Positions 5,565 through 52,165 of a DNA stretch of 64,000 bases are shown piece by piece. The stretch is from contig CAWFCE010000002.1 in NCBI GenBank assembly GCA_963814275.1, positions 106,537 through 170,536 of the forward strand, read 5' to 3'. Source of the stretch: Candidatus Parcubacteria bacterium. GTDB taxonomy: Bacteria > Patescibacteriota > Patescibacteriia > Patescibacteriales > UBA12075. The stretch's first letter is position 1. Each line of letters starts with the position of its first letter. Position numbers and translations under genes: made by a program. The notes below the pieces were generated by a model. It was given only the letters and a program-made list of their open reading frames with translations. It searched no databases and was not told where the DNA came from.

Positions 5565-6548
5565 CTACTTAATACCAAGCCGTTTTTTCACGGCCTTCAG
5601 CTTACTCTCCGCCATTGGTCGCGCCCGCTTCGCTCCCTCGTCCAGAATTGCCCTTACCTCTTCATCACTAATTTTATTATACTTGGATTGGAATTCGATT
5701 AAAAATGACTTAACTTCAGCCGCCACTGCTTTTTTGAAATCACCGTAACCTTTGCCCGTGAATTCCTTTTCCAGCGACTCGACGCTTTTCCCCGTTAACA
5801 ATGACTGGATAGTGAGCAGATTTGAGATTCCCGGTTTGTCCTTAATATCGTATTTTACCTCTGTGCCGGAATCGGTCGTCGCCCGCATGATCTTTTTGGC
5901 GGCGCCATCAGGATCTTCCGTAAGCTCGATCCGATTGTACTCGCTCGCGGCGCTTTTTGACATCTTTTTCTCCGGCTCATCCAGGCCCATGATGCGCGCG
6001 CCCTGCTTCAGGAGACGCACTTCCGGCTCGGTGAAAGTCCCGCCGAATTGGTGGTTGAAGCGCCGGGCCAGGTCGCGGGTCAATTCCACGTGCTGGGTCT
6101 GGTCTTCGCCCACCGGCACGACCGCCGTATCATAAAGCAGGATATCGGCCGCCATCAGAACCGGGTAATCGAAGAGTCCGATGCTGACGTTTTCCTGGTC
6201 TTCGCCGGCTTTATCCTTGAATTGTGTCATCTTTTTGAGATCCGACAACCGCGCGACCGTATTAAAGATCCAACTGAGTTCCGCGTGCTCGCTCAGATCA
6301 GACTGCTGGAAAATTATCGAGCGTTTGGGATCGATGCCGCTCGCCAGGAACAGCTTGGCGATCTCGATGATATTCTTTTTGAGTACAGCCGGGTCCTGCT
6401 TGACGGTAATGGCATGATAATCGACCACGCAGAAAATGCAGTCAAACTCATCCTGCAAAGCGACGAACTGGGTGATCGCGCCCAGATAATTGCCGATATG
6501 CAGATTGCCGCTCGGCTGGACGCCGGAAAAAATCCTTGGTTTGTTCAT
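5565..6548 (-). CDS. trpS: Tryptophan--tRNA ligase
   Basis: N-terminal SGVQPSGNLHIGNYLGA (HIGH) and KMSKS motifs; 327 aa. Confidence 0.95.
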   Translation of the reverse strand: MNKPRIFSGVQPSGNLHIGNYLGAITQFVALQDEFDCIFCVVDYHAITVKQDPAVLKKNIIEIAKLFLASGIDPKRSIIFQQSDLSEHAELSWIFNTVARLSDLKKMTQFKDKAGEDQENVSIGLFDYPVLMAADILLYDTAVVPVGEDQTQHVELTRDLARRFNHQFGGTFTEPEVRLLKQGARIMGLDEPEKKMSKSAASEYNRIELTEDPDGAAKKIMRATTDSGTEVKYDIKDKPGISNLLTIQSLLTGKSVESLEKEFTGKGYGDFKKAVAAEVKSFLIEFQSKYNKISDEEVRAILDEGAKRARPMAESKLKAVKKRLGIK

Positions 6549-30775: not shown

Positions 30776-30920
30776 TTGGGATATTTTGGATTTTTGGGAT
30801 AAATGATATTTCGTGTTTATCCCAAAAATCGCAACAACCCCAACCATCCTAAAAATCATAATAAAGCAATCATTCGCATATCCCGCATTCGTAATGGCGG
30901 GCTCGCGAAGCGAATAACAT

Positions 30921-46727: not shown

Positions 46728-47117
46728 GTGGCAATGAATTTGAGATACATATTAATCGGAATCGGTTCGACCATCCCCCGGCTCGGGGGGCCATACACTG
46801 TTACCATCCACGCAATCGAAATATGGGACGTAGACAAACCAGGCGGTAAACCGGTCGAAATTGCGGATGATAGCCAAGCGGGATGGGAGCGGCAACGGGA
46901 GATTCTCGGGCAGAGAAAGGTCGAGTGGGATAATCCCGATTTTACCAACCATCATTATACGCACACTTTTTTGAAAGTGACTGCCCTGGCAGATCTTTAT
47001 TACAGCCAGCAGAAATGCAAAATCCAAATAAACGGCATCTCTCCACGATCGAACGGTTATGGCATCAAAGGTAATGTAGAAGCGGAGATCGAATATCCGC
47101 GCGACTATAGCTCCTAG
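46728..47117 (+). CDS. Hypothetical protein
   Basis: SD AAAGGAGAGGTG before the ATG; terminator hairpin cagccctgtc...gacagggctt at 47142-47160. Confidence 0.6.
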   Translation: MAMNLRYILIGIGSTIPRLGGPYTVTIHAIEIWDVDKPGGKPVEIADDSQAGWERQREILGQRKVEWDNPDFTNHHYTHTFLKVTALADLYYSQQKCKIQINGISPRSNGYGIKGNVEAEIEYPRDYSS

Positions 47118-47235
47118 CAATCCATCAGACTGAAACAGCCCTGTCACCTCGACAGGGCTTTGATTTACGCAAAACCGGCATGATAATTCCAGTACCAATG
47201 ATTGGATCAAAATAATTCAAGAGCTCTGACAAATT

Positions 47236-47484
47236 TTAACGATGAGGGCAGCCGGGCCAGCAACACGGCCGGCGCATTCCTGTCTCAAGTTCTTCTGTCG
47301 TTCTTCTGATTCTGCGCTCCCTGGTTTTTGATTCCTTGGCTGATTCAACCCAGCAAATAAATTCATTTATTGCTAACTGGGTAATACTATCCCAGACTGA
47401 GAGAACTTTTTTATTATTTTTAAGGTTATTTTTCAAGTCTTCCGGCAATTCGTGCACTGTGCCGCCAAATATTTTATTAGTCAT
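47236..47484 (-). CDS. YdeI/OmpD-associated family small protein
   Basis: WVESAKESKTRERRIRRTTEEL and the terminal RRPCCWPGCPHR, as I recall for this family. Confidence 0.6.
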   Translation of the reverse strand: MTNKIFGGTVHELPEDLKNNLKNNKKVLSVWDSITQLAINEFICWVESAKESKTRERRIRRTTEELETGMRRPCCWPGCPHR

Positions 47485-47662
47485 AACTTGTAAATTATAT
47501 TAGATTACAATTATATAAAATAAGCTTAACAAAAAAATTAAATCTAATCTCATCCACAATAAAAAACTGCCTTTTTCTAAAGCAGTTTTTTTATTGCGGA
47601 AGCAAATAGTCGCCATTCTAACCTTTTTTCGCGAAAATACATTGTGCTATATTATTCCAAAG

Positions 47663-48190
47663 TTATAATATACTTTTTTTATATTTCTTTATTAATTTAA
47701 GTAATTGATTGTACTGCCAGTTTTTTTCCTTTAAAATAGCTTTATCAATATTCTTTGGCGTACTTCTGTAAATAGCTTGTAAGGCATAAATTGCAGGTCC
47801 AATAGAATGAGTGTAAACATGGGCAGTGGCCACCGCTTGCCCAGCCGCACGGGCAACAGAGCGGGCTGTATTATCTTCGCCTACATCTCGTGCTGCAGCG
47901 TGGGAGGAGAGTGACGCTTTTCTAATAACTGCCATTTTAAATTTTCCGGTATCAATCCAATTTTGTAACACTTCAAGAGCCTCTCTTGGCCGCTTATCAT
48001 TTGGGTAGTTATTTTCAAAATATGGAAGAACTCTTTTGGCACAATCTAATGCCCAAATTGCTAAAATTTTTTTATCTGTTTTATGTATTAACTTTTCAGT
48101 TCTTTTATCTTTAAAATCTACAAGTGAATATTTTTTTCTTTTTTCAATAATTACTTTTGATGAAATTTTTTTAGTTGTTTTGCTTGTCAT
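47663..48190 (-). CDS. Hypothetical protein resembling the Imm-5-like putative immunity protein family
   Basis: LAIWALDCAKRVLPYFENNYPNDKRPREALEVLQNWIDTG...AARAAGQAVATAHV pattern. The assignment is from memory of the family and is unverified. Confidence 0.55.
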   Translation of the reverse strand: MTSKTTKKISSKVIIEKRKKYSLVDFKDKRTEKLIHKTDKKILAIWALDCAKRVLPYFENNYPNDKRPREALEVLQNWIDTGKFKMAVIRKASLSSHAAARDVGEDNTARSVARAAGQAVATAHVYTHSIGPAIYALQAIYRSTPKNIDKAILKEKNWQYNQLLKLIKKYKKSIL

Positions 48191-48249
48191 AATATTATTG
48201 TACCAAAAAAGCTAGAGTAAGTCATTGGGGGTTAGTAAAAACAACAAAA

Positions 48250-48273
48250 AAGTTGGCTAATTAAAGCCAACTT
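48250..48273 (-). terminator. Intrinsic terminator downstream of the padR-DUF1048 operon
   Basis: aagttggct-aattaa-agccaactt, with a T-run on the minus strand. Confidence 0.6.
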
Positions 48274-48278
48274 GATTT

Positions 48279-48383
48279 GTGCGGGGGCTGGTTGACGATT
48301 TTAGAAATATGGACTGGGTTGATGTTTGGAAAAGCCTTAGGTATTCAGCGAGCAAAAATATGGGAAAGTATATTTCTTTTTAG
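48279..48383 (+). CDS. Candidate 34-aa small protein, paralog A (GTG start; not in the ORF track)
   Basis: VRGLVDDFRNMDWVDVWKSLRYSASKNMGKYISF. Colinear with copy B over 35 codons with no indels. Differences are enriched at third positions. Confidence 0.4.
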   Translation: MRGLVDDFRNMDWVDVWKSLRYSASKNMGKYISF

Positions 48384-48428
48384 AATACGTCATATTCTAT
48401 AATCAGAAACAGTACACTCTATTTTTAA

Positions 48429-48773
48429 CTAATCATCTTTCCCAAGTTTTTTCTTGATGCCGAGGTTTAATTTTTGCCGCCAATTTTCTATGTAGGTTTT
48501 TTCACCTCGCACAAGCTCATCACAAAACGCCGCTACATCGTCGCCGGTAATTTCCAATACAGACTTGTCGTTAGCAGCGGCTTCTTCGAAGAGTTCGACT
48601 ATGCCCTTAAACACTTCTATTGAGCCGAGCCCAGCGCTTTTAAAAAGATAATTCTTCATTTCATCATAGACAATGCGGTACTCACGCGGCAGGGCTTTTG
48701 CTCGCGCCTCTATTGCTTTCCACTCTTTTTTGGCGGATATGTCGCCAATGATTTTTTCTAAAAATTTATTCAT
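48429..48773 (-). CDS. DUF1048-family protein (PadR operon partner)
   Basis: KKEWKAIEARAKALPREYRIVYDEMKNYLF...GDDVAAFCDELV; overlaps padR by 8 nt. Confidence 0.72.
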   Translation of the reverse strand: MNKFLEKIIGDISAKKEWKAIEARAKALPREYRIVYDEMKNYLFKSAGLGSIEVFKGIVELFEEAAANDKSVLEITGDDVAAFCDELVRGEKTYIENWRQKLNLGIKKKLGKDD

Positions 48774-49095
48774 ACGATTTTTCTTTTAAATTATTAATTT
48801 TTGAAGATACAAAATTCCATTTCTTCCAAAATATTTCCAGCTCTTTGCGTCCCGCATTGTTGAGAGTATAGAATTTACGCGGCGGTCCGGCAGTAGAAGG
48901 TTTTTTCTTGATATTTACAAAACTATTTTTTTCGAAGCGCAATAAAATAGTATATACTGTGCCCTCAACAACATCCGTAAAGCCCAGCTGGCGCAGCGAT
49001 GAAGCGATTTTATAGCCATATGTTTCGCCATTGCTGATTATTTCAAGTACGCAGCCTTCGAGAATACCTTTTAGTATTTCTGTAATATTTTTCAT
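48766..49095 (-). CDS. PadR family transcriptional regulator
   Basis: LEGCVLEIISNGETYGYKIASSLRQLGF...EGTVYTILLRFEKNSFV...YTLNNAGRKEL. Confidence 0.88.
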   Translation of the reverse strand: MKNITEILKGILEGCVLEIISNGETYGYKIASSLRQLGFTDVVEGTVYTILLRFEKNSFVNIKKKPSTAGPPRKFYTLNNAGRKELEIFWKKWNFVSSKINNLKEKSYE

Positions 49096-49244
49096 TTTAT
49101 TTCTCTTACTTGCTTGTTATGCTTTGGTATATTGTATTACATACTACTACTATATCGTATCACACAGTAGTTAAGCTGTCAATAGAACAAACCAAAATAA
49201 GCTGAATGGATTCATGCCCCGCCAATAGTCGCGAAAAATCAAAT

Positions 49245-49274
49245 AAAAAATTCCTTAAAGTTAAGGAATTTTTT
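49245..49274. terminator. Symmetric A-run/T-run hairpin; near-identical copy of the tRNA-Asp terminator
   Basis: aaaaaattcctta-aagt-taaggaatttttt. Confidence 0.6.
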
Positions 49275-49285
49275 ATGGAAAATTT

Positions 49286-49390
49286 ATGCGGGGGCTGGTA
49301 GACGATTTCAGAACTATGGATTGGGTTGAGATTTGGGAAGGGCTCAGATATTCAGCTATTAAAAATATGGAAAAGTATATTGCTTTTTAA
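49286..49390 (+). CDS. Candidate 34-aa small protein, paralog B (ATG start; not in the ORF track)
   Basis: MRGLVDDFRTMDWVEIWEGLRYSAIKNMEKYIAF; lies 76 nt upstream of, and co-directional with, the 234-aa ORF. Confidence 0.4.
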   Translation: MRGLVDDFRTMDWVEIWEGLRYSAIKNMEKYIAF

Positions 49391-49466
49391 GAAAATATTT
49401 TTTGCTTTTTTATTATTTTTTTGCTACTTTTTAAATATAATAAATAAAATAATAGTATAAAAATTT

Positions 49467-50171
49467 ATGAAGCTTATTTATAAAATTGATAAAAAATACG
49501 ACAAGGAAATGCTGTTTGAATTTATGCCTGAGGGCAGAACCAGAGAAATCGGACAATTCGCAGAGCTAATGCGCATTGATAAAGATGAGGCTGCTTTTGC
49601 GATTAAAAATCAGGGAAAAGACATCAATAAACTAGTGCCATTTCTAATTGAACAAAAATATAAAAAAATATTACCCTATCTTAAGAACTCAGTAGCAACC
49701 TACCAGTCATCATGGGACAAAATTAATAAACAATTTTCGGAAATGGTTACAAGAAAAACCCAATTCGACTGGAAGCATGAAAAATATTATTGCGTGGTCA
49801 GTGCTTATCACGAGGGCATAAGTTCCTGGGGCGGCAATACGATTGCCAGACGCTGGTCAATCAATTCTGATACGCAAAGACCCGTCACCGCCCATGAACT
49901 TACACTCTCACATTTCTGGACCATAATGGAAAGAAATGATAAAGCCAAAGACTGGACAGAGGATAAAAAGTGGCAATATTCAGAAATATTATCCTGGTGT
50001 CTTTTGGGACTGGATGATGATTTTTATAAATTCTGGCCTTGGCTGCCGCAAAGCCACAGATTTCCGCTCAATCATAATTATCCAGACATTGTTCCTCTAC
50101 AGAAAAAACTACGCTCTATTTATCTAAAACATAAAAACTTCAAATCATTCCTCGAACAGATATTAAAATAA
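49467..50171 (+). CDS. Hypothetical Trp-rich protein
   Basis: 234 aa and AT-rich, with no family I recognise. Convergent with the rSAM gene. Confidence 0.65.
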   Translation: MKLIYKIDKKYDKEMLFEFMPEGRTREIGQFAELMRIDKDEAAFAIKNQGKDINKLVPFLIEQKYKKILPYLKNSVATYQSSWDKINKQFSEMVTRKTQFDWKHEKYYCVVSAYHEGISSWGGNTIARRWSINSDTQRPVTAHELTLSHFWTIMERNDKAKDWTEDKKWQYSEILSWCLLGLDDDFYKFWPWLPQSHRFPLNHNYPDIVPLQKKLRSIYLKHKNFKSFLEQILK

Positions 50172-50172
50172 G

Positions 50173-50206
50173 AAAAAAGGCGTTACCCAGAGGGAACGCC
50201 TTTTTA
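50173..50206. terminator. Bidirectional terminator between the convergent 234-aa ORF and the rSAM gene
   Basis: aaaaaaggcgtt-acccagaggg-aacgccttttt. Confidence 0.65.
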
Positions 50207-50229
50207 TTTTAACTAGATTTTGAAAGATA

Positions 50230-51651
50230 CTACTGCTGATTTTGCCGGATAAAATCCTGAAGTACCCATTCAACCGATTTCTTGGAATGAATACAAAAGA
50301 TATCATCAATTGCCCAAACGCTGCCGTTTCTGATATCCGAACGACATGGACAGCCACCGCCGCAAAGTCCGACCGCGATGCAGTCGTAGCACTGCGGCAT
50401 GGATAATGGCGATCGGTTTGCCCATTCAGCAAAAGTCTTGTCCGTATACGGTGAAAAACCTGTTTTGTATTTTGTAAAATACTTTTTTGAACCCATAAAG
50501 GCTTGACAAGGTCCGACTTCACCGCCAGGCAACGCGACGACTTGCCTGCCGCAAGCAGCGCAATCATTGGGATACACCTTTTTGTTGGTGAAAAACTCCA
50601 CTTTCCGCATCATGCGGTCTTCATAGATACCTTGCTCGCGCAGATACTCAAAGCATTGGATAATTTCATCCGAAGCCTTTTGGGCATACTCCCTGTCGGC
50701 GAATATCTGGTATTCGCTATCCATGAGAATATTGTAGCCAAGGCTTTTTACTTTGAATTTGTCAATCACATACTTGGTGTTCTCGAGCAAATTGTCGACA
50801 TTATGCCAGCCGACAGTGAATGAAATTCCGACATCGTCGACTCCTGCCTCCATCAATCTTGAATAACCATTCCAAGTGGCCTGAAATGTGCCGCCGCCTG
50901 ATTTATATACGCGGCATTGATTGTTTGTTTCAGGCATACCGTCTACGGATAACCCGACGCCAACGCCGTTAGTCTTGATGAACTCGGCTATTTCCCTTGT
51001 TATCAAAGACCCGTTTGTTATCATGCTGATGTCGGTGTTTTTAGGAAGTCTTCCTTCCTTTACCAGTTTGACGATATGCAGCACTGCTTCCTTGAAAGTC
51101 TTTTGGTTCATCAGCGGTTCGCCACCGTAAAAAAGTATCGATTTATTTTTGGACTTTTTGTGATGGCTCCAGTCCGCGAATAAATCAGTTCTCTTTTTTG
51201 CCATAGCGGGCGACATGTGGGAAAACTGATAATCGCCTGGCATGCCATTTTCAACAAAACAATACTTACAGGCAAAATTGCACTCATCGGTAAGAATAAG
51301 GTACAAAAGATTGATAGCTGTGCCTGGAAGATTGTTTTCCTTGCAGTTCCTGATGTCATTCGATTCATCATATTCGACTGGCACCATCATGCCGAAGTCA
51401 ACCAGCCTTTTCAGGAGACGAACAAGGTTTTTCCTGTCTTCTTCCGAGATATCCATCTGCCCTGCAATCATTTTGATTGACTTGCCGTATTTATAATCTT
51501 CGATAATTCCAGAGAATGTCTCTTCCAGAAATACCACTTCCATGCTCAGGGCATGAAACAAGGCATAACTGCTTCCTGCTTTTTTGGGCGGTATGATATG
51601 GCAAAACCGCGAGAATCTGAAAGCGTCCTTATAATAATCTGTCTTTTTCAT
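50230..51651 (-). CDS. Radical SAM/SPASM-domain peptide maturase with an N-terminal RRE-like domain
   Basis: CNFACKYC (CX3CX2C) at aa 125-132. The C-terminal SPASM Cys pattern is CAACGRQ...GPC then CYDCIAVGLCGGGCPC...C. About 110 aa precede the rSAM core. SD AAGGAG 7 nt before the ATG at 51651 (the track start is TTG at 51654). Confidence 0.88.
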   Translation of the reverse strand: MKKTDYYKDAFRFSRFCHIIPPKKAGSSYALFHALSMEVVFLEETFSGIIEDYKYGKSIKMIAGQMDISEEDRKNLVRLLKRLVDFGMMVPVEYDESNDIRNCKENNLPGTAINLLYLILTDECNFACKYCFVENGMPGDYQFSHMSPAMAKKRTDLFADWSHHKKSKNKSILFYGGEPLMNQKTFKEAVLHIVKLVKEGRLPKNTDISMITNGSLITREIAEFIKTNGVGVGLSVDGMPETNNQCRVYKSGGGTFQATWNGYSRLMEAGVDDVGISFTVGWHNVDNLLENTKYVIDKFKVKSLGYNILMDSEYQIFADREYAQKASDEIIQCFEYLREQGIYEDRMMRKVEFFTNKKVYPNDCAACGRQVVALPGGEVGPCQAFMGSKKYFTKYKTGFSPYTDKTFAEWANRSPLSMPQCYDCIAVGLCGGGCPCRSDIRNGSVWAIDDIFCIHSKKSVEWVLQDFIRQNQQ

Positions 51652-51698
51652 CAACTTTCTCCTTTGCTATTTCGTTAATTGCCAAATATATTAAATGA

Positions 51699-51726
51699 GG
51701 CTCGCCCAAAACAAATGAGCGAGCCT
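51699..51726 (-). terminator. Hairpin between the precursor peptide and the maturase (partial terminator/attenuator)
   Basis: Minus strand reads ggctcgc-tcatttgttttg-ggcgagcc followed by tcattt. Confidence 0.45.
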
Positions 51727-51748
51727 TTTTGCGGTTTATATCACACTG

Positions 51749-51901
51749 CTAATACCCGTCGGAACAACTGCAACGGCAGCGGCAGCTTTTTGCGCCGTAA
51801 GCGCCCTTGAATGACTTGAGGTCAATCTTTTTGAGCACTTTTTGGCGGCATTCTGCGCCAGGCACCTTCCAGCGAAACTGGCTTTTGGGGCTCTTCTGCA
51901 T
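51749..51901 (-). CDS. Candidate RiPP precursor peptide, 50 aa, with an alternating-Cys C-terminus (not in the ORF track)
   Basis: Minus strand has AAAGGAGGTGaaaggcaATG. Translation: MQKSPKSQFRWKVPGAECRQKVLKKIDLKSFKGAYGAKSCRCRCSCSDGY, then TAG. It ends 94 nt upstream of the rSAM start. Confidence 0.7.
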   Translation of the reverse strand: MQKSPKSQFRWKVPGAECRQKVLKKIDLKSFKGAYGAKSCRCRCSCSDGY

Positions 51902-51971
51902 TGCCTTTCACCTCCTTTCATTGTTTAATGTGCACAACGTGATATCGCAGATCATTCTGAAATATCGTGTT

Positions 51972-52000
51972 GTATTAAAATATAATTAGAATTTTGTCAA
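51972..52000 (-). promoter_or_regulatory. Candidate sigma70-type promoter of the precursor-maturase cassette
   Basis: Minus strand reads TTGACA, 17 nt, TAATAC. The imperfect inverted repeat acaacgtgatat (51934-51945) / atatcgtgttgt (51962-51973) abuts/overlaps the -10 element. Confidence 0.4.
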
Positions 52001-52047
52001 CCACCAAAAAAAGTTCGAGTCTCTTCCGTTGTCTTAAGAAACTAAAC

Positions 52048-52077
52048 AAAAAATTCCTTAACATTAAGGAATTTTTT
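52048..52077 (-). terminator. Intrinsic terminator of tRNA-Asp
   Basis: aaaaaattcctta-acat-taaggaatttttt. Confidence 0.65.
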
Positions 52078-52088
52078 GTGATAAATTA

Positions 52089-52165
52089 TGGCGGAGCGGA
52101 CGAGACTCGAACTCGCGACCTCTGCCGTGACAGGGCAGCGTTCTAACCAACTGAACTACCGCTCC
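52089..52165 (-). tRNA. tRNA-Asp (anticodon GTC), CCA encoded
   Basis: GGAGCGG acceptor, anticodon loop CCTGTCAC, T-loop GAGTTCGAGTCTC, 3' GCCA. Confidence 0.9.

Follow-up and report, generated by a model that had tools for sequence, protein, structure and literature searches.

The genomes of bacteria of the candidate phyla radiation (CPR, or Patescibacteria) are tiny and, to our knowledge, the ways in which they gain accessory genes are little understood. Here, we describe two copies of a very short open reading frame (ORF), micro-ORF A and micro-ORF B, which lie in an array of small groups of genes beside a tRNA-Asp gene. The array is contained in a 64,000-nucleotide stretch of DNA from a Candidatus Parcubacteria bacterium (contig CAWFCE010000002.1), the whole of which is referred to as the window. 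In order, the array consists of a hairpin junction (T0), an Imm5-like gene, a hairpin (T_A), micro-ORF A, the genes for a DUF1048 protein and a PadR regulator, a further hairpin (T_B), micro-ORF B, an ORF of 234 amino acids, a radical-SAM gene, a cysteine-rich ORF of 50 amino acids, a terminator (T_Asp), and the tRNA-Asp gene.

Micro-ORF A (48279..48383, + strand) starts with GTG and encodes 34 amino acids, MRGLVDDFRNMDWVDVWKSLRYSASKNMGKYISF, and micro-ORF B (49286..49390, + strand) starts with ATG and encodes a peptide of the same length, MRGLVDDFRTMDWVEIWEGLRYSAIKNMEKYIAF. They are colinear direct repeats of 105 nt with no indels, ending in TAG and TAA, respectively. There are 18 nucleotide differences between them (5, 3, and 10 at the first, second, and third codon positions), which leave six sense codons differing synonymously and eight amino acids changed; a recount bore out these figures and the translations as they stood in the original prediction, an earlier reading of this DNA. 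Profile alignment places the limits of homology at 48275-48389 and 49282-49395, extending approximately 4 nt upstream of the start codon and 6 nt beyond the stop codon. The likeness far exceeds chance, with the pattern of the 22-nt head giving no matches in 100 shuffles. As had also been noted, a hairpin lies some 10 nt upstream of each copy, ending 5 nt before the start of micro-ORF A and 9 nt before that of micro-ORF B. No Shine-Dalgarno sequence is visible before either micro-ORF, again in agreement with the earlier reading, and neighbouring genes in the window are also without an obvious one. The template and variable repeats of a diversity-generating retroelement were ruled out as an identity for the pair, since the spectrum of mismatches is mixed, with nine types of change, and is not adenine-specific.

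The periodicity of the differences had been taken to favour coding. For the window pair alone the third-position excess is weak (p = 0.043, for a phase chosen beforehand) and, because the antisense frame -1 has its third positions in common with the sense frame, periodicity on its own cannot tell which strand is coding. Two copies are insufficient to decide the nature of the element, and for this reason 13 further DNA copies and approximately 45 called proteins were gathered from CPR metagenomes; it is these homologues that supply the argument for coding. Scans with DNA patterns identified true copies in a Candidatus Parcubacteria metagenome-assembled genome (L002) and in three metagenome contigs (L009, L010, and L012). 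The pattern used for the metagenomes fixed only G-L-V-[DE]-D-F-x-x-M-[DE]-W, leaving the remainder of the element as an unbiased test. Look-ups of exact proteins provided the DNA and context of nine more loci, to give 15 distinct DNA copies in all. An exhaustive HMMER search of 1.84 billion representative proteins, then a profile search of a collection of 5.8 billion proteins, identified approximately 45 family members. All of these are 32-192 amino acids in length, nearly all form singleton clusters, and none has a precomputed Pfam domain. The family has a common architecture of a block, (W/M/L)RGL[RV]DDFRT[LM]DW, a variable linker that stays in frame, and a tail, [KQS][LI][ED][YH][LF]L. Extensions at the N-terminus of the called proteins have no homology to each other, and some of them are translated hairpin.

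Several other searches gave no match to the family. A first word-indexed protein search, using the two peptides concatenated, found nothing, and there was no match to the peptide in Pfam, NCBIfam, or PADLOC, or in sequence and fold searches of the PDB. Scans of Rfam, both at the gathering threshold and at E = 10, identified nothing relevant. Phage genomes and viral contigs held no true match, including a tblastn search of 50,697 phage genomes, which returned only a tape-measure protein at E = 9. A weak match in 6 of 33 members was found to phrog_24671, a phage protein family of 75 residues, over the first ~25 positions (best E = 0.0014); it covers the block only, and ‘integrase’ is the annotation label of that family. 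Among the pattern scans, the hits L003-L008 and L011 matched the pattern alone and were set aside as chance or unrelated, and long HMMER matches in multiple stretches proved to be unrelated repeat proteins (satellite-like translations, CUB repeats, and a tape-measure repeat). Two called proteins, P0013 and P0016, have a core motif, [LI]V..F...DW..[IV]W.G[LI], that is similar to the CUB-domain motif YDWLEIWDG and to the unit (FFKNTDWGKVWQGI) repeated in a phage tape-measure protein; convergence of short helix or strand motifs is the probable cause. Two others, P0032 and P0035, have two DDFRT blocks approximately 200 nt apart within one called ORF; these may represent closely spaced or nested junctions of the type described below.

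A range of observations on the 15 DNA copies points towards a peptide as the object of selection. The first 78 nt (26 codons) are free of stops in frame +0 in every copy, while the other five frames contain totals of 20, 29, 15, 4, and 25 stops over the same 78 nt. Measured from the conserved codon 0, the ORFs are 26-46 codons long, and differences in the length of the linker stay in frame. Within the 12-codon block, the mean entropy at codon positions 1, 2, and 3 is 0.40, 0.23, and 0.80. Synonymous codons are exchanged for Gly (GGA/GGG/GGT), Thr (ACC/ACG/ACT), Arg at codon 8 (AGA/AGG/CGG), and Leu at codon 10 (CTT/TTG), as well as for Leu downstream of the block (CTC/CTT/TTG/TTA). In a comparison of six copies, pN/pS was 0.44 in frame +0; the BLOSUM62 score at differing sites was -0.07 in this frame compared with -0.5 to -1.2 in the other five. 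In two of the three copies at one locus (L020, copies b and c) the block is common to both and the tails are unrelated in their DNA, and the pattern F...IE.L is kept in each. Structure prediction by AlphaFold2 with the family alignment gave helices at residues 2-10 and 13-33 with a mean pLDDT of 85.6, and the peptide is charged and amphipathic rather than membrane-like. An antisense ORF in frame -1, which has the same periodicity and a pN/pS of 0.40, was rejected, having a start in only 3 of the 15 copies and stops in four.

On these comparisons, we conclude that the 105-nt element is evolving under selection on its encoded peptide, and translation of the micro-ORF is likely. The suggestion of a real, duplicated micro-protein is thus supported by the homologues, with their conserved frame, varying synonymous codons, and conservative replacements. 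Two of the types of observation that had been named as telling against a coding element were not seen as further copies were added: there are no stops in this frame over its first 26 codons, and codon-periodic entropy is found, with a single compensatory pair (on the sense strand), rather than compensatory covariation in its place. At the 5’ end, a second layer of conservation is present. Arg at codon 1 is encoded by CGG in all 13 of the 15 copies with Arg at this position, in contrast to the variable Arg at codon 8, and the third position of codon 5 is C in every copy. These invariant sites suggest an added constraint at the level of the DNA.

Every copy has upstream of it an A-run, a stem-loop, and a T-run, with the sequence of the hairpin unrelated between lineages. 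A strict hairpin criterion identified 14 of 15 copies, compared with 14 of 123 starts of ordinary long ORFs from the same loci, and the median folding energy of the upstream 50 nt was -11.9 kcal/mol for the copies against -5.2 kcal/mol for the ordinary ORFs (Mann-Whitney p = 2e-6). Transcription of the cargo genes appears to run mostly towards the micro-ORF and to end at the hairpin. In six cases (window copy A, L002, L010, L013, L015, and L019) the micro-ORF lies antisense between the stop codon of a convergent gene and the terminator; at window copy B, L009, L017, and L018, the next gene is on the micro-ORF’s own strand. Co-transcription of copy B with the 234-amino acid ORF, which had been proposed, is not supported as a general rule, as the downstream genes are different everywhere and are mostly convergent.

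In the window, hairpin T_A (48250..48273, - strand) is an intrinsic terminator for padR-DUF1048, with a fold energy of -12.7 kcal/mol and, in a terminator scan, a 9-bp stem followed by TTTTGTTGTT. The left arm of the junction at micro-ORF B (49241..49291) is made up of hairpin T_B (49243-49276), a spacer, and ATGCGG. The T_B hairpin is present only twice in the window, and its second occurrence is beside the tRNA gene. This gene, tRNA-Asp(GTC) (52089..52165, - strand; identified by ARAGORN and by the Rfam tRNA model at 71.5 bits), anchors the array and has its 3’ end towards the cassettes. Immediately 3’ of it is a terminator arm (52044..52094) consisting of a hairpin (52046-52079), a spacer, and the first bases of the tRNA 3’ end (TGGCGG).

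Comparison of these arms defines a breakpoint. Positions 49241-49291 align over 51 nt with 52044-52094, and the similarity stops at GCGG, past which lies micro-ORF B on one side and tRNA-Asp on the other. Furthermore, copies b and c of L020 are preceded by 83-87 nt that match, at ~93-95% identity, the 3’ flank of the tRNA-Asp gene at that locus, and here the similarity ends at GGAGCGG. In a third comparison, the T0 arm of the window (47552..47599) is homologous to the arm before the L010 ORF up to GCGG, after which the sequences are unrelated. Homologous hairpin arms on the left are therefore joined in all three cases to differing right arms (a micro-ORF, tRNA-Asp, or other sequence), leading to a junction grammar of hairpin, spacer, and (N)TGCGG, followed by the body of the micro-ORF or of tRNA-Asp or, rarely, by other sequence. 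A short version of the same pattern, of 15 nt, is present at L024. The GCGG corresponds, on the opposite strand, to the discriminator base and first acceptor-stem bases of tRNA-Asp, and it is the only part of the tRNA that the boundaries have in common (4-7 nt). The lack of variation in CGG at codon 1 is in keeping with a constraint on the DNA at this GCGG core. We are confident in this anatomy of the junction. The hairpin of the copy nearest to the tRNA (copy B) matches the tRNA terminator, while that of the more distant copy A differs from it, as is also the case at L020. Such a gradient is consistent with serial insertion at the end of the tRNA gene, with older units pushed outwards. A mimic of the 3’ half of tRNA-Asp within the block, plausible by eye, was rejected, with z ~0 against shuffles and a fit no better than to other tRNAs.

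Two further observations concern these boundaries. A Logan contig from another sample (L001, ERR11571143) is 100% identical to window positions 49205-52093, which amounts to one cassette unit, and it ends 5 nt into tRNA-Asp, no more than 1 nt from the predicted breakpoint. This could reflect branching of the assembly graph where strains vary at the junction. In addition, an inverted partial copy of the T-arm and acceptor of tRNA-Asp (AGTTCGAGTCTCTTCCGTTGTC; 52012..52033, + strand) is present on the far side of the terminator in the window and has the 12-mer AGTTCGAGTCTC in common with the tRNA gene. Similar inverted copies of the resident tRNA-Asp occur in L020 (6741, 7663, and 10189), L024 (~7385), and L017. 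In L020 the copy has a 14-nt match to the tRNA and is part of the repeated left arm, and in L017 it is 64 nt upstream of the micro-ORF.

Linkage to tRNA-Asp is also seen away from the window. In four lineages (the window, L019, L020/L023, and L024), a tRNA-Asp(GTC) gene is 1.05-2.7 kb beyond the micro-ORF, always on the opposite strand and with the 3’ end towards the ORF. The intervening genes are unrelated from locus to locus, being the radical-SAM set in the window, a GIY-YIG gene and an orphan in L019, orphans, an SSF transporter, and TrmB in L020, and an orphan in L024. No conserved neighbouring operon was found, as neither cargo nor flanking genes are homologous between loci. At L020, three tandem copies (at 6040, 6817, and 7739), each with its own hairpin, are separated from each other by one cargo gene, with two more genes between the last copy and tRNA-Asp. 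The unit of array plus tRNA-Asp lies between rplT and the PPDK gene in both L020 and L024, in opposite orientations, and the relationship between micro-ORF and tRNA is kept. The variable region of these two loci also contains toxin-antitoxin pairs (ParE/RHH and HigB-like), and their rplT adjoins smpB-tmRNA-infC-rpmI. In the window itself, 49 nt just 5’ of the tmRNA gene (30872-30920) are 94% identical to L018 1057-1105; despite this match, ARAGORN identified no tmRNA on L018. L002 contains a close RecQ homologue with ~70% DNA identity to the window recQ, and its micro-ORF is oppositely oriented relative to recQ. Recombinase genes were found at L017, where a tyrosine integrase, an HTH_17 gene, and a large serine recombinase are 2-5 kb downstream of the micro-ORF, and L013 has only a weak serine-recombinase-like remnant. 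The called protein P0046 was considered as a C-terminal fragment of a serine recombinase and rejected, with nothing in Pfam or NCBIfam and only a weak PHROG match (E = 0.0035).

The cargo of the window differs from one unit to the next. In cassette 1, headed by micro-ORF A, the genes for DUF1048 (48429-48773, - strand; Pfam PF06304, E = 9e-34) and PadR (48766-49095, - strand; Pfam PF03551, E = 1.7e-21) occupy 48429..49095 and are read towards micro-ORF A and T_A, with a promoter-like site, TTGACA-17-TACGAT, at 49182-49154. Cassette 2, headed by micro-ORF B, has cargo at 49467..51901. This begins with an orphan ORF of 234 amino acids from the ORF list (49467-50171, + strand), for which no family was found in Pfam, NCBIfam, PADLOC, or PHROG searches, and continues with a radical-SAM enzyme (50230-51654, - strand; Pfam Radical_SAM and Fer4_12). 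Just upstream of the enzyme gene is the cysteine-rich ORF of 50 amino acids (51749-51901, - strand; also from the ORF list), which ends in KSCRCRCSCSDGY and is separated from it by a hairpin at 51698-51726. It is a plausible precursor, for the radical-SAM enzyme, of a ribosomally synthesized and post-translationally modified peptide, so the micro-ORFs are not needed to explain this cassette. Between T0 and the junction at micro-ORF A is the Imm5-like gene (47663..48190, - strand; Pfam PF21805 Imm5_like, E = 1e-41). T0 itself has an A-run, a hairpin (~47563-47593), a T-run, and TTGCGG with no micro-ORF after it, and is probably an older or remodelled junction that also serves as the terminator of the Imm5-like gene. 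Past T0, a stretch of approximately 60 nt (47612-47670) has its homologue at the end of the L010 contig, at a distance of ~860 nt from the micro-ORF there, which suggests that modules have been shuffled between lineages. No integrase was found among the window cargo (PadR, DUF1048, Imm5-like, radical SAM, and orphan) with the two L017 recombinases as queries, and PADLOC defence models did not match the cargo genes. Exact-protein look-ups found the 234-amino acid protein only on L001 and on one contig of >1 Mb; neither PadR nor DUF1048 was on record. The G + C content is 38% over the array, compared with 47-50% in its flanks and a window mean of 46.5%, with a dip within 47001-52000 to 34-39% over 47-50 kb. 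This low content fits horizontal acquisition of the cassettes.

Taken together, these findings suggest that the element is a conserved head module at cassette junctions beside tRNA-Asp in CPR (Parcubacteria-like) bacteria, an explanation to which we give a probability of about 60%. The two copies had been described as flanking the padR-DUF1048 operon. Rather than by a local duplication around an operon, they are better explained as the heads of two separate cassettes, PadR-DUF1048 and radical-SAM, that were added in turn at the 3’ end of the tRNA gene. From the junction anatomy, the family, the breakpoint, and the selection at the amino-acid level, we infer serial insertion of a site-specific kind. 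The 3’ end of tRNA-Asp would receive, in succession, units of terminator, micro-ORF, and cargo through site-specific recombination, the crossover falling in or next to GCGG. Each new unit would push older units away from the tRNA, and the recombinase would act in trans. The micro-ORF would encode a two-helix peptide of ~35 residues. Its role is a guess; we favour an accessory function in recombination or maintenance of the cassettes, because the peptide is fixed at a recombination junction. In its boldest form, this would be an undescribed CPR cassette system with a trans-acting recombinase, whose module of terminator hairpin, GCGG core, and micro-ORF yields a two-helix product that aids recombination. 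Such a system would be analogous to integrons yet distinct from them in mechanism and evolution, and would serve as a main route for accessory genes; we put this forward tentatively, as a possibility with the odds against it.

Several observations weigh against the head-module explanation. Of nine lineages with sufficient flanking sequence, five have no tRNA-Asp in the 4-8 kb retrieved downstream of the ORF, and the arrays are short, with two or three units. A recombinase is absent from the window and from most loci in searches with the L017 tyrosine and serine enzymes, only two queries that distant recombinases could escape. The repeats of 51-87 nt could also have arisen through homologous recombination. 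Neither circular forms nor empty sites were observed, the sole and indirect hint of them being the end of L001 close to the predicted breakpoint. For the micro-ORF itself, codon 0 is ATG, GTG, or TTG in only 8 of the 15 copies, with TGG in three, GAG in two, TTT in one, and CTG in one. The 0-36 nt between a bidirectional terminator and codon 0 leave no obvious room for a promoter, and no Shine-Dalgarno sequence is present.

Some of these points would also be expected if the conserved 5’ block is mainly a DNA site for recombination, such as an arm or core-binding region beside GCGG, with the open frame being incidental or a relic and no peptide made. The lack of promoter space and ribosome-binding sequence, the seven copies without a start at codon 0, the location of the block exactly at the breakpoint, and the fixed synonymous sites (CGG at codon 1 and the C of codon 5) are all consistent with this. 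A site for protein binding would not, however, produce variability with a period of 3 nt. Nor would it retain Arg through a change between AGA and CGG, or Leu between CTC and TTG, hold linker indels in frame, or preserve a helix-like tail in diverged DNA, as is seen in copies b and c of L020. We consider this explanation to be unlikely, if more probable than those that follow.

The clear coding signal would also be accounted for by an ordinary stand-alone small gene, encoding a regulatory or toxin-like peptide in variable islands and having no role in recombination, whose position after terminators reflects tight packing. The islands do carry toxin-antitoxin and immunity genes, and the position of the ORF antisense to the 3’ untranslated region (UTR) of cargo is reminiscent of type I toxin-antitoxin systems. 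Packing does not readily explain an association with hairpins that is near-universal, or a breakpoint within the first two codons, and the charged, amphipathic, non-membrane-like peptide has no match in PADLOC, Pfam, or NCBIfam. This makes such a gene a rather improbable answer.

An RNA element on the minus strand, either part of a 3’ UTR or a small RNA ending at the terminator, might in principle mimic coding constraint. On that strand an intrinsic terminator follows directly after each copy, and in the six loci listed above the element sits between a convergent stop codon and the terminator; copy A is indeed physically within the 3’ UTR of padR-DUF1048, and an element of this kind had been among the earlier proposals. 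The RNA element itself finds no support in structure, covariation, or Rfam, where there is no match at E = 10. The consensus fold of the antisense strand has 0 pairs, and that of the sense strand is weak (-7.7 kcal/mol, with the one compensatory pair). Single-sequence folds gave z-scores of 0.27, -1.64, 0.11, and 0.95, the last two for the antisense strand, and thus no conserved RNA structure on either strand. In addition, the variability is codon-periodic, with double changes that preserve the amino acid, and window copy B, L009, L017, and L018 are without a convergent gene. An explanation of this type is very unlikely. Least probable of all, to the point of being scarcely credible, is the C-terminal stub left when integration split a longer gene, or a remnant of an integrase gene overlapping its own attachment site: P0043 and P0046 do have the block at the end of ORFs of 146 and 192 amino acids and the weak ‘integrase’ PHROG match is on record, but the HMMER search found the block only in short ORFs and unrelated repeat proteins, the N-terminal extensions are not mutually homologous, and the residues just before the block in L013 (the P0046 extension) are translated hairpin. 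The original prediction had raised such a stub and asked whether longer proteins end in the motif; no longer parent protein was found, all true matches being 32-192 amino acids, and what stands is the link to an integration site, with copies at recombination junctions beside tRNA-Asp.

The wider relevance of the head-module explanation lies in a recurrent junction signature of terminator hairpin, GCGG, and 35-codon ORF that marks small cassettes stacking at tRNA-Asp. Among the cargo of the marked cassettes are regulators, genes for immunity and for toxin-antitoxin systems, and a radical-SAM set for the modification of peptides. If correct, this would provide a searchable marker for variable gene cassettes of uncultured bacteria, a new family of micro-proteins overlooked by standard annotation, and a defined recombination breakpoint that can be checked directly in metagenomic reads. 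It also illustrates that paralogous ORFs on either side of an operon can have been left by serial insertion, rather than by local duplication, and may point to an undescribed way in which small CPR genomes acquire accessory genes.

A search of the literature on CPR cassettes, integrons, or tRNA islands found nothing relevant. Type I toxin-antitoxin loci, and other loci with duplicated small ORFs, resemble the elements described here in their very short ORFs, in diverged paralogues within variable regions, and in an antisense transcript ending at a terminator. Unlike the hydrophobic membrane peptides of type I systems, the peptide here is charged and amphipathic with two helices; no consistent antisense promoter was found, only consensus-level sites, and the ORF coincides with a breakpoint. 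Integrons similarly form arrays of small, mostly single-operon cassettes without their own recombinase, bounded by hairpins of variable sequence. In contrast to integrons, no intI/attI platform or adjacent integrase was found here, and a tRNA gene serves as the anchor. The hairpins consist of short, near-perfect terminators of A-run, stem, and T-run, rather than imperfect attC sites with R’’/R’ cores, the conserved core (GCGG and the block) is outside the hairpin, and each unit has a coding micro-ORF.

By analogy, the closest described counterpart is the accretion of integrative elements at tRNA genes, as in the tycheposon islands of Prochlorococcus, where successive integrations push older elements deeper and partial tRNA copies separate the elements (bioRxiv 10.1101/2020.12.28.424599). 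The separators in the present arrays are different, being a terminator hairpin and a 35-codon ORF rather than partial tRNA copies (only 4-7 nt of the tRNA 3’ end are involved); the units are also very small (0.8-2.8 kb), and the two-query search found no integrase in the window array. In other respects the two are alike: both belong to small, streamlined genomes and have a tRNA gene as their anchor, on its 3’ side, both have variable cargo and boundary repeats, and in both some units are without an integrase while fragmented integrases are found nearby.

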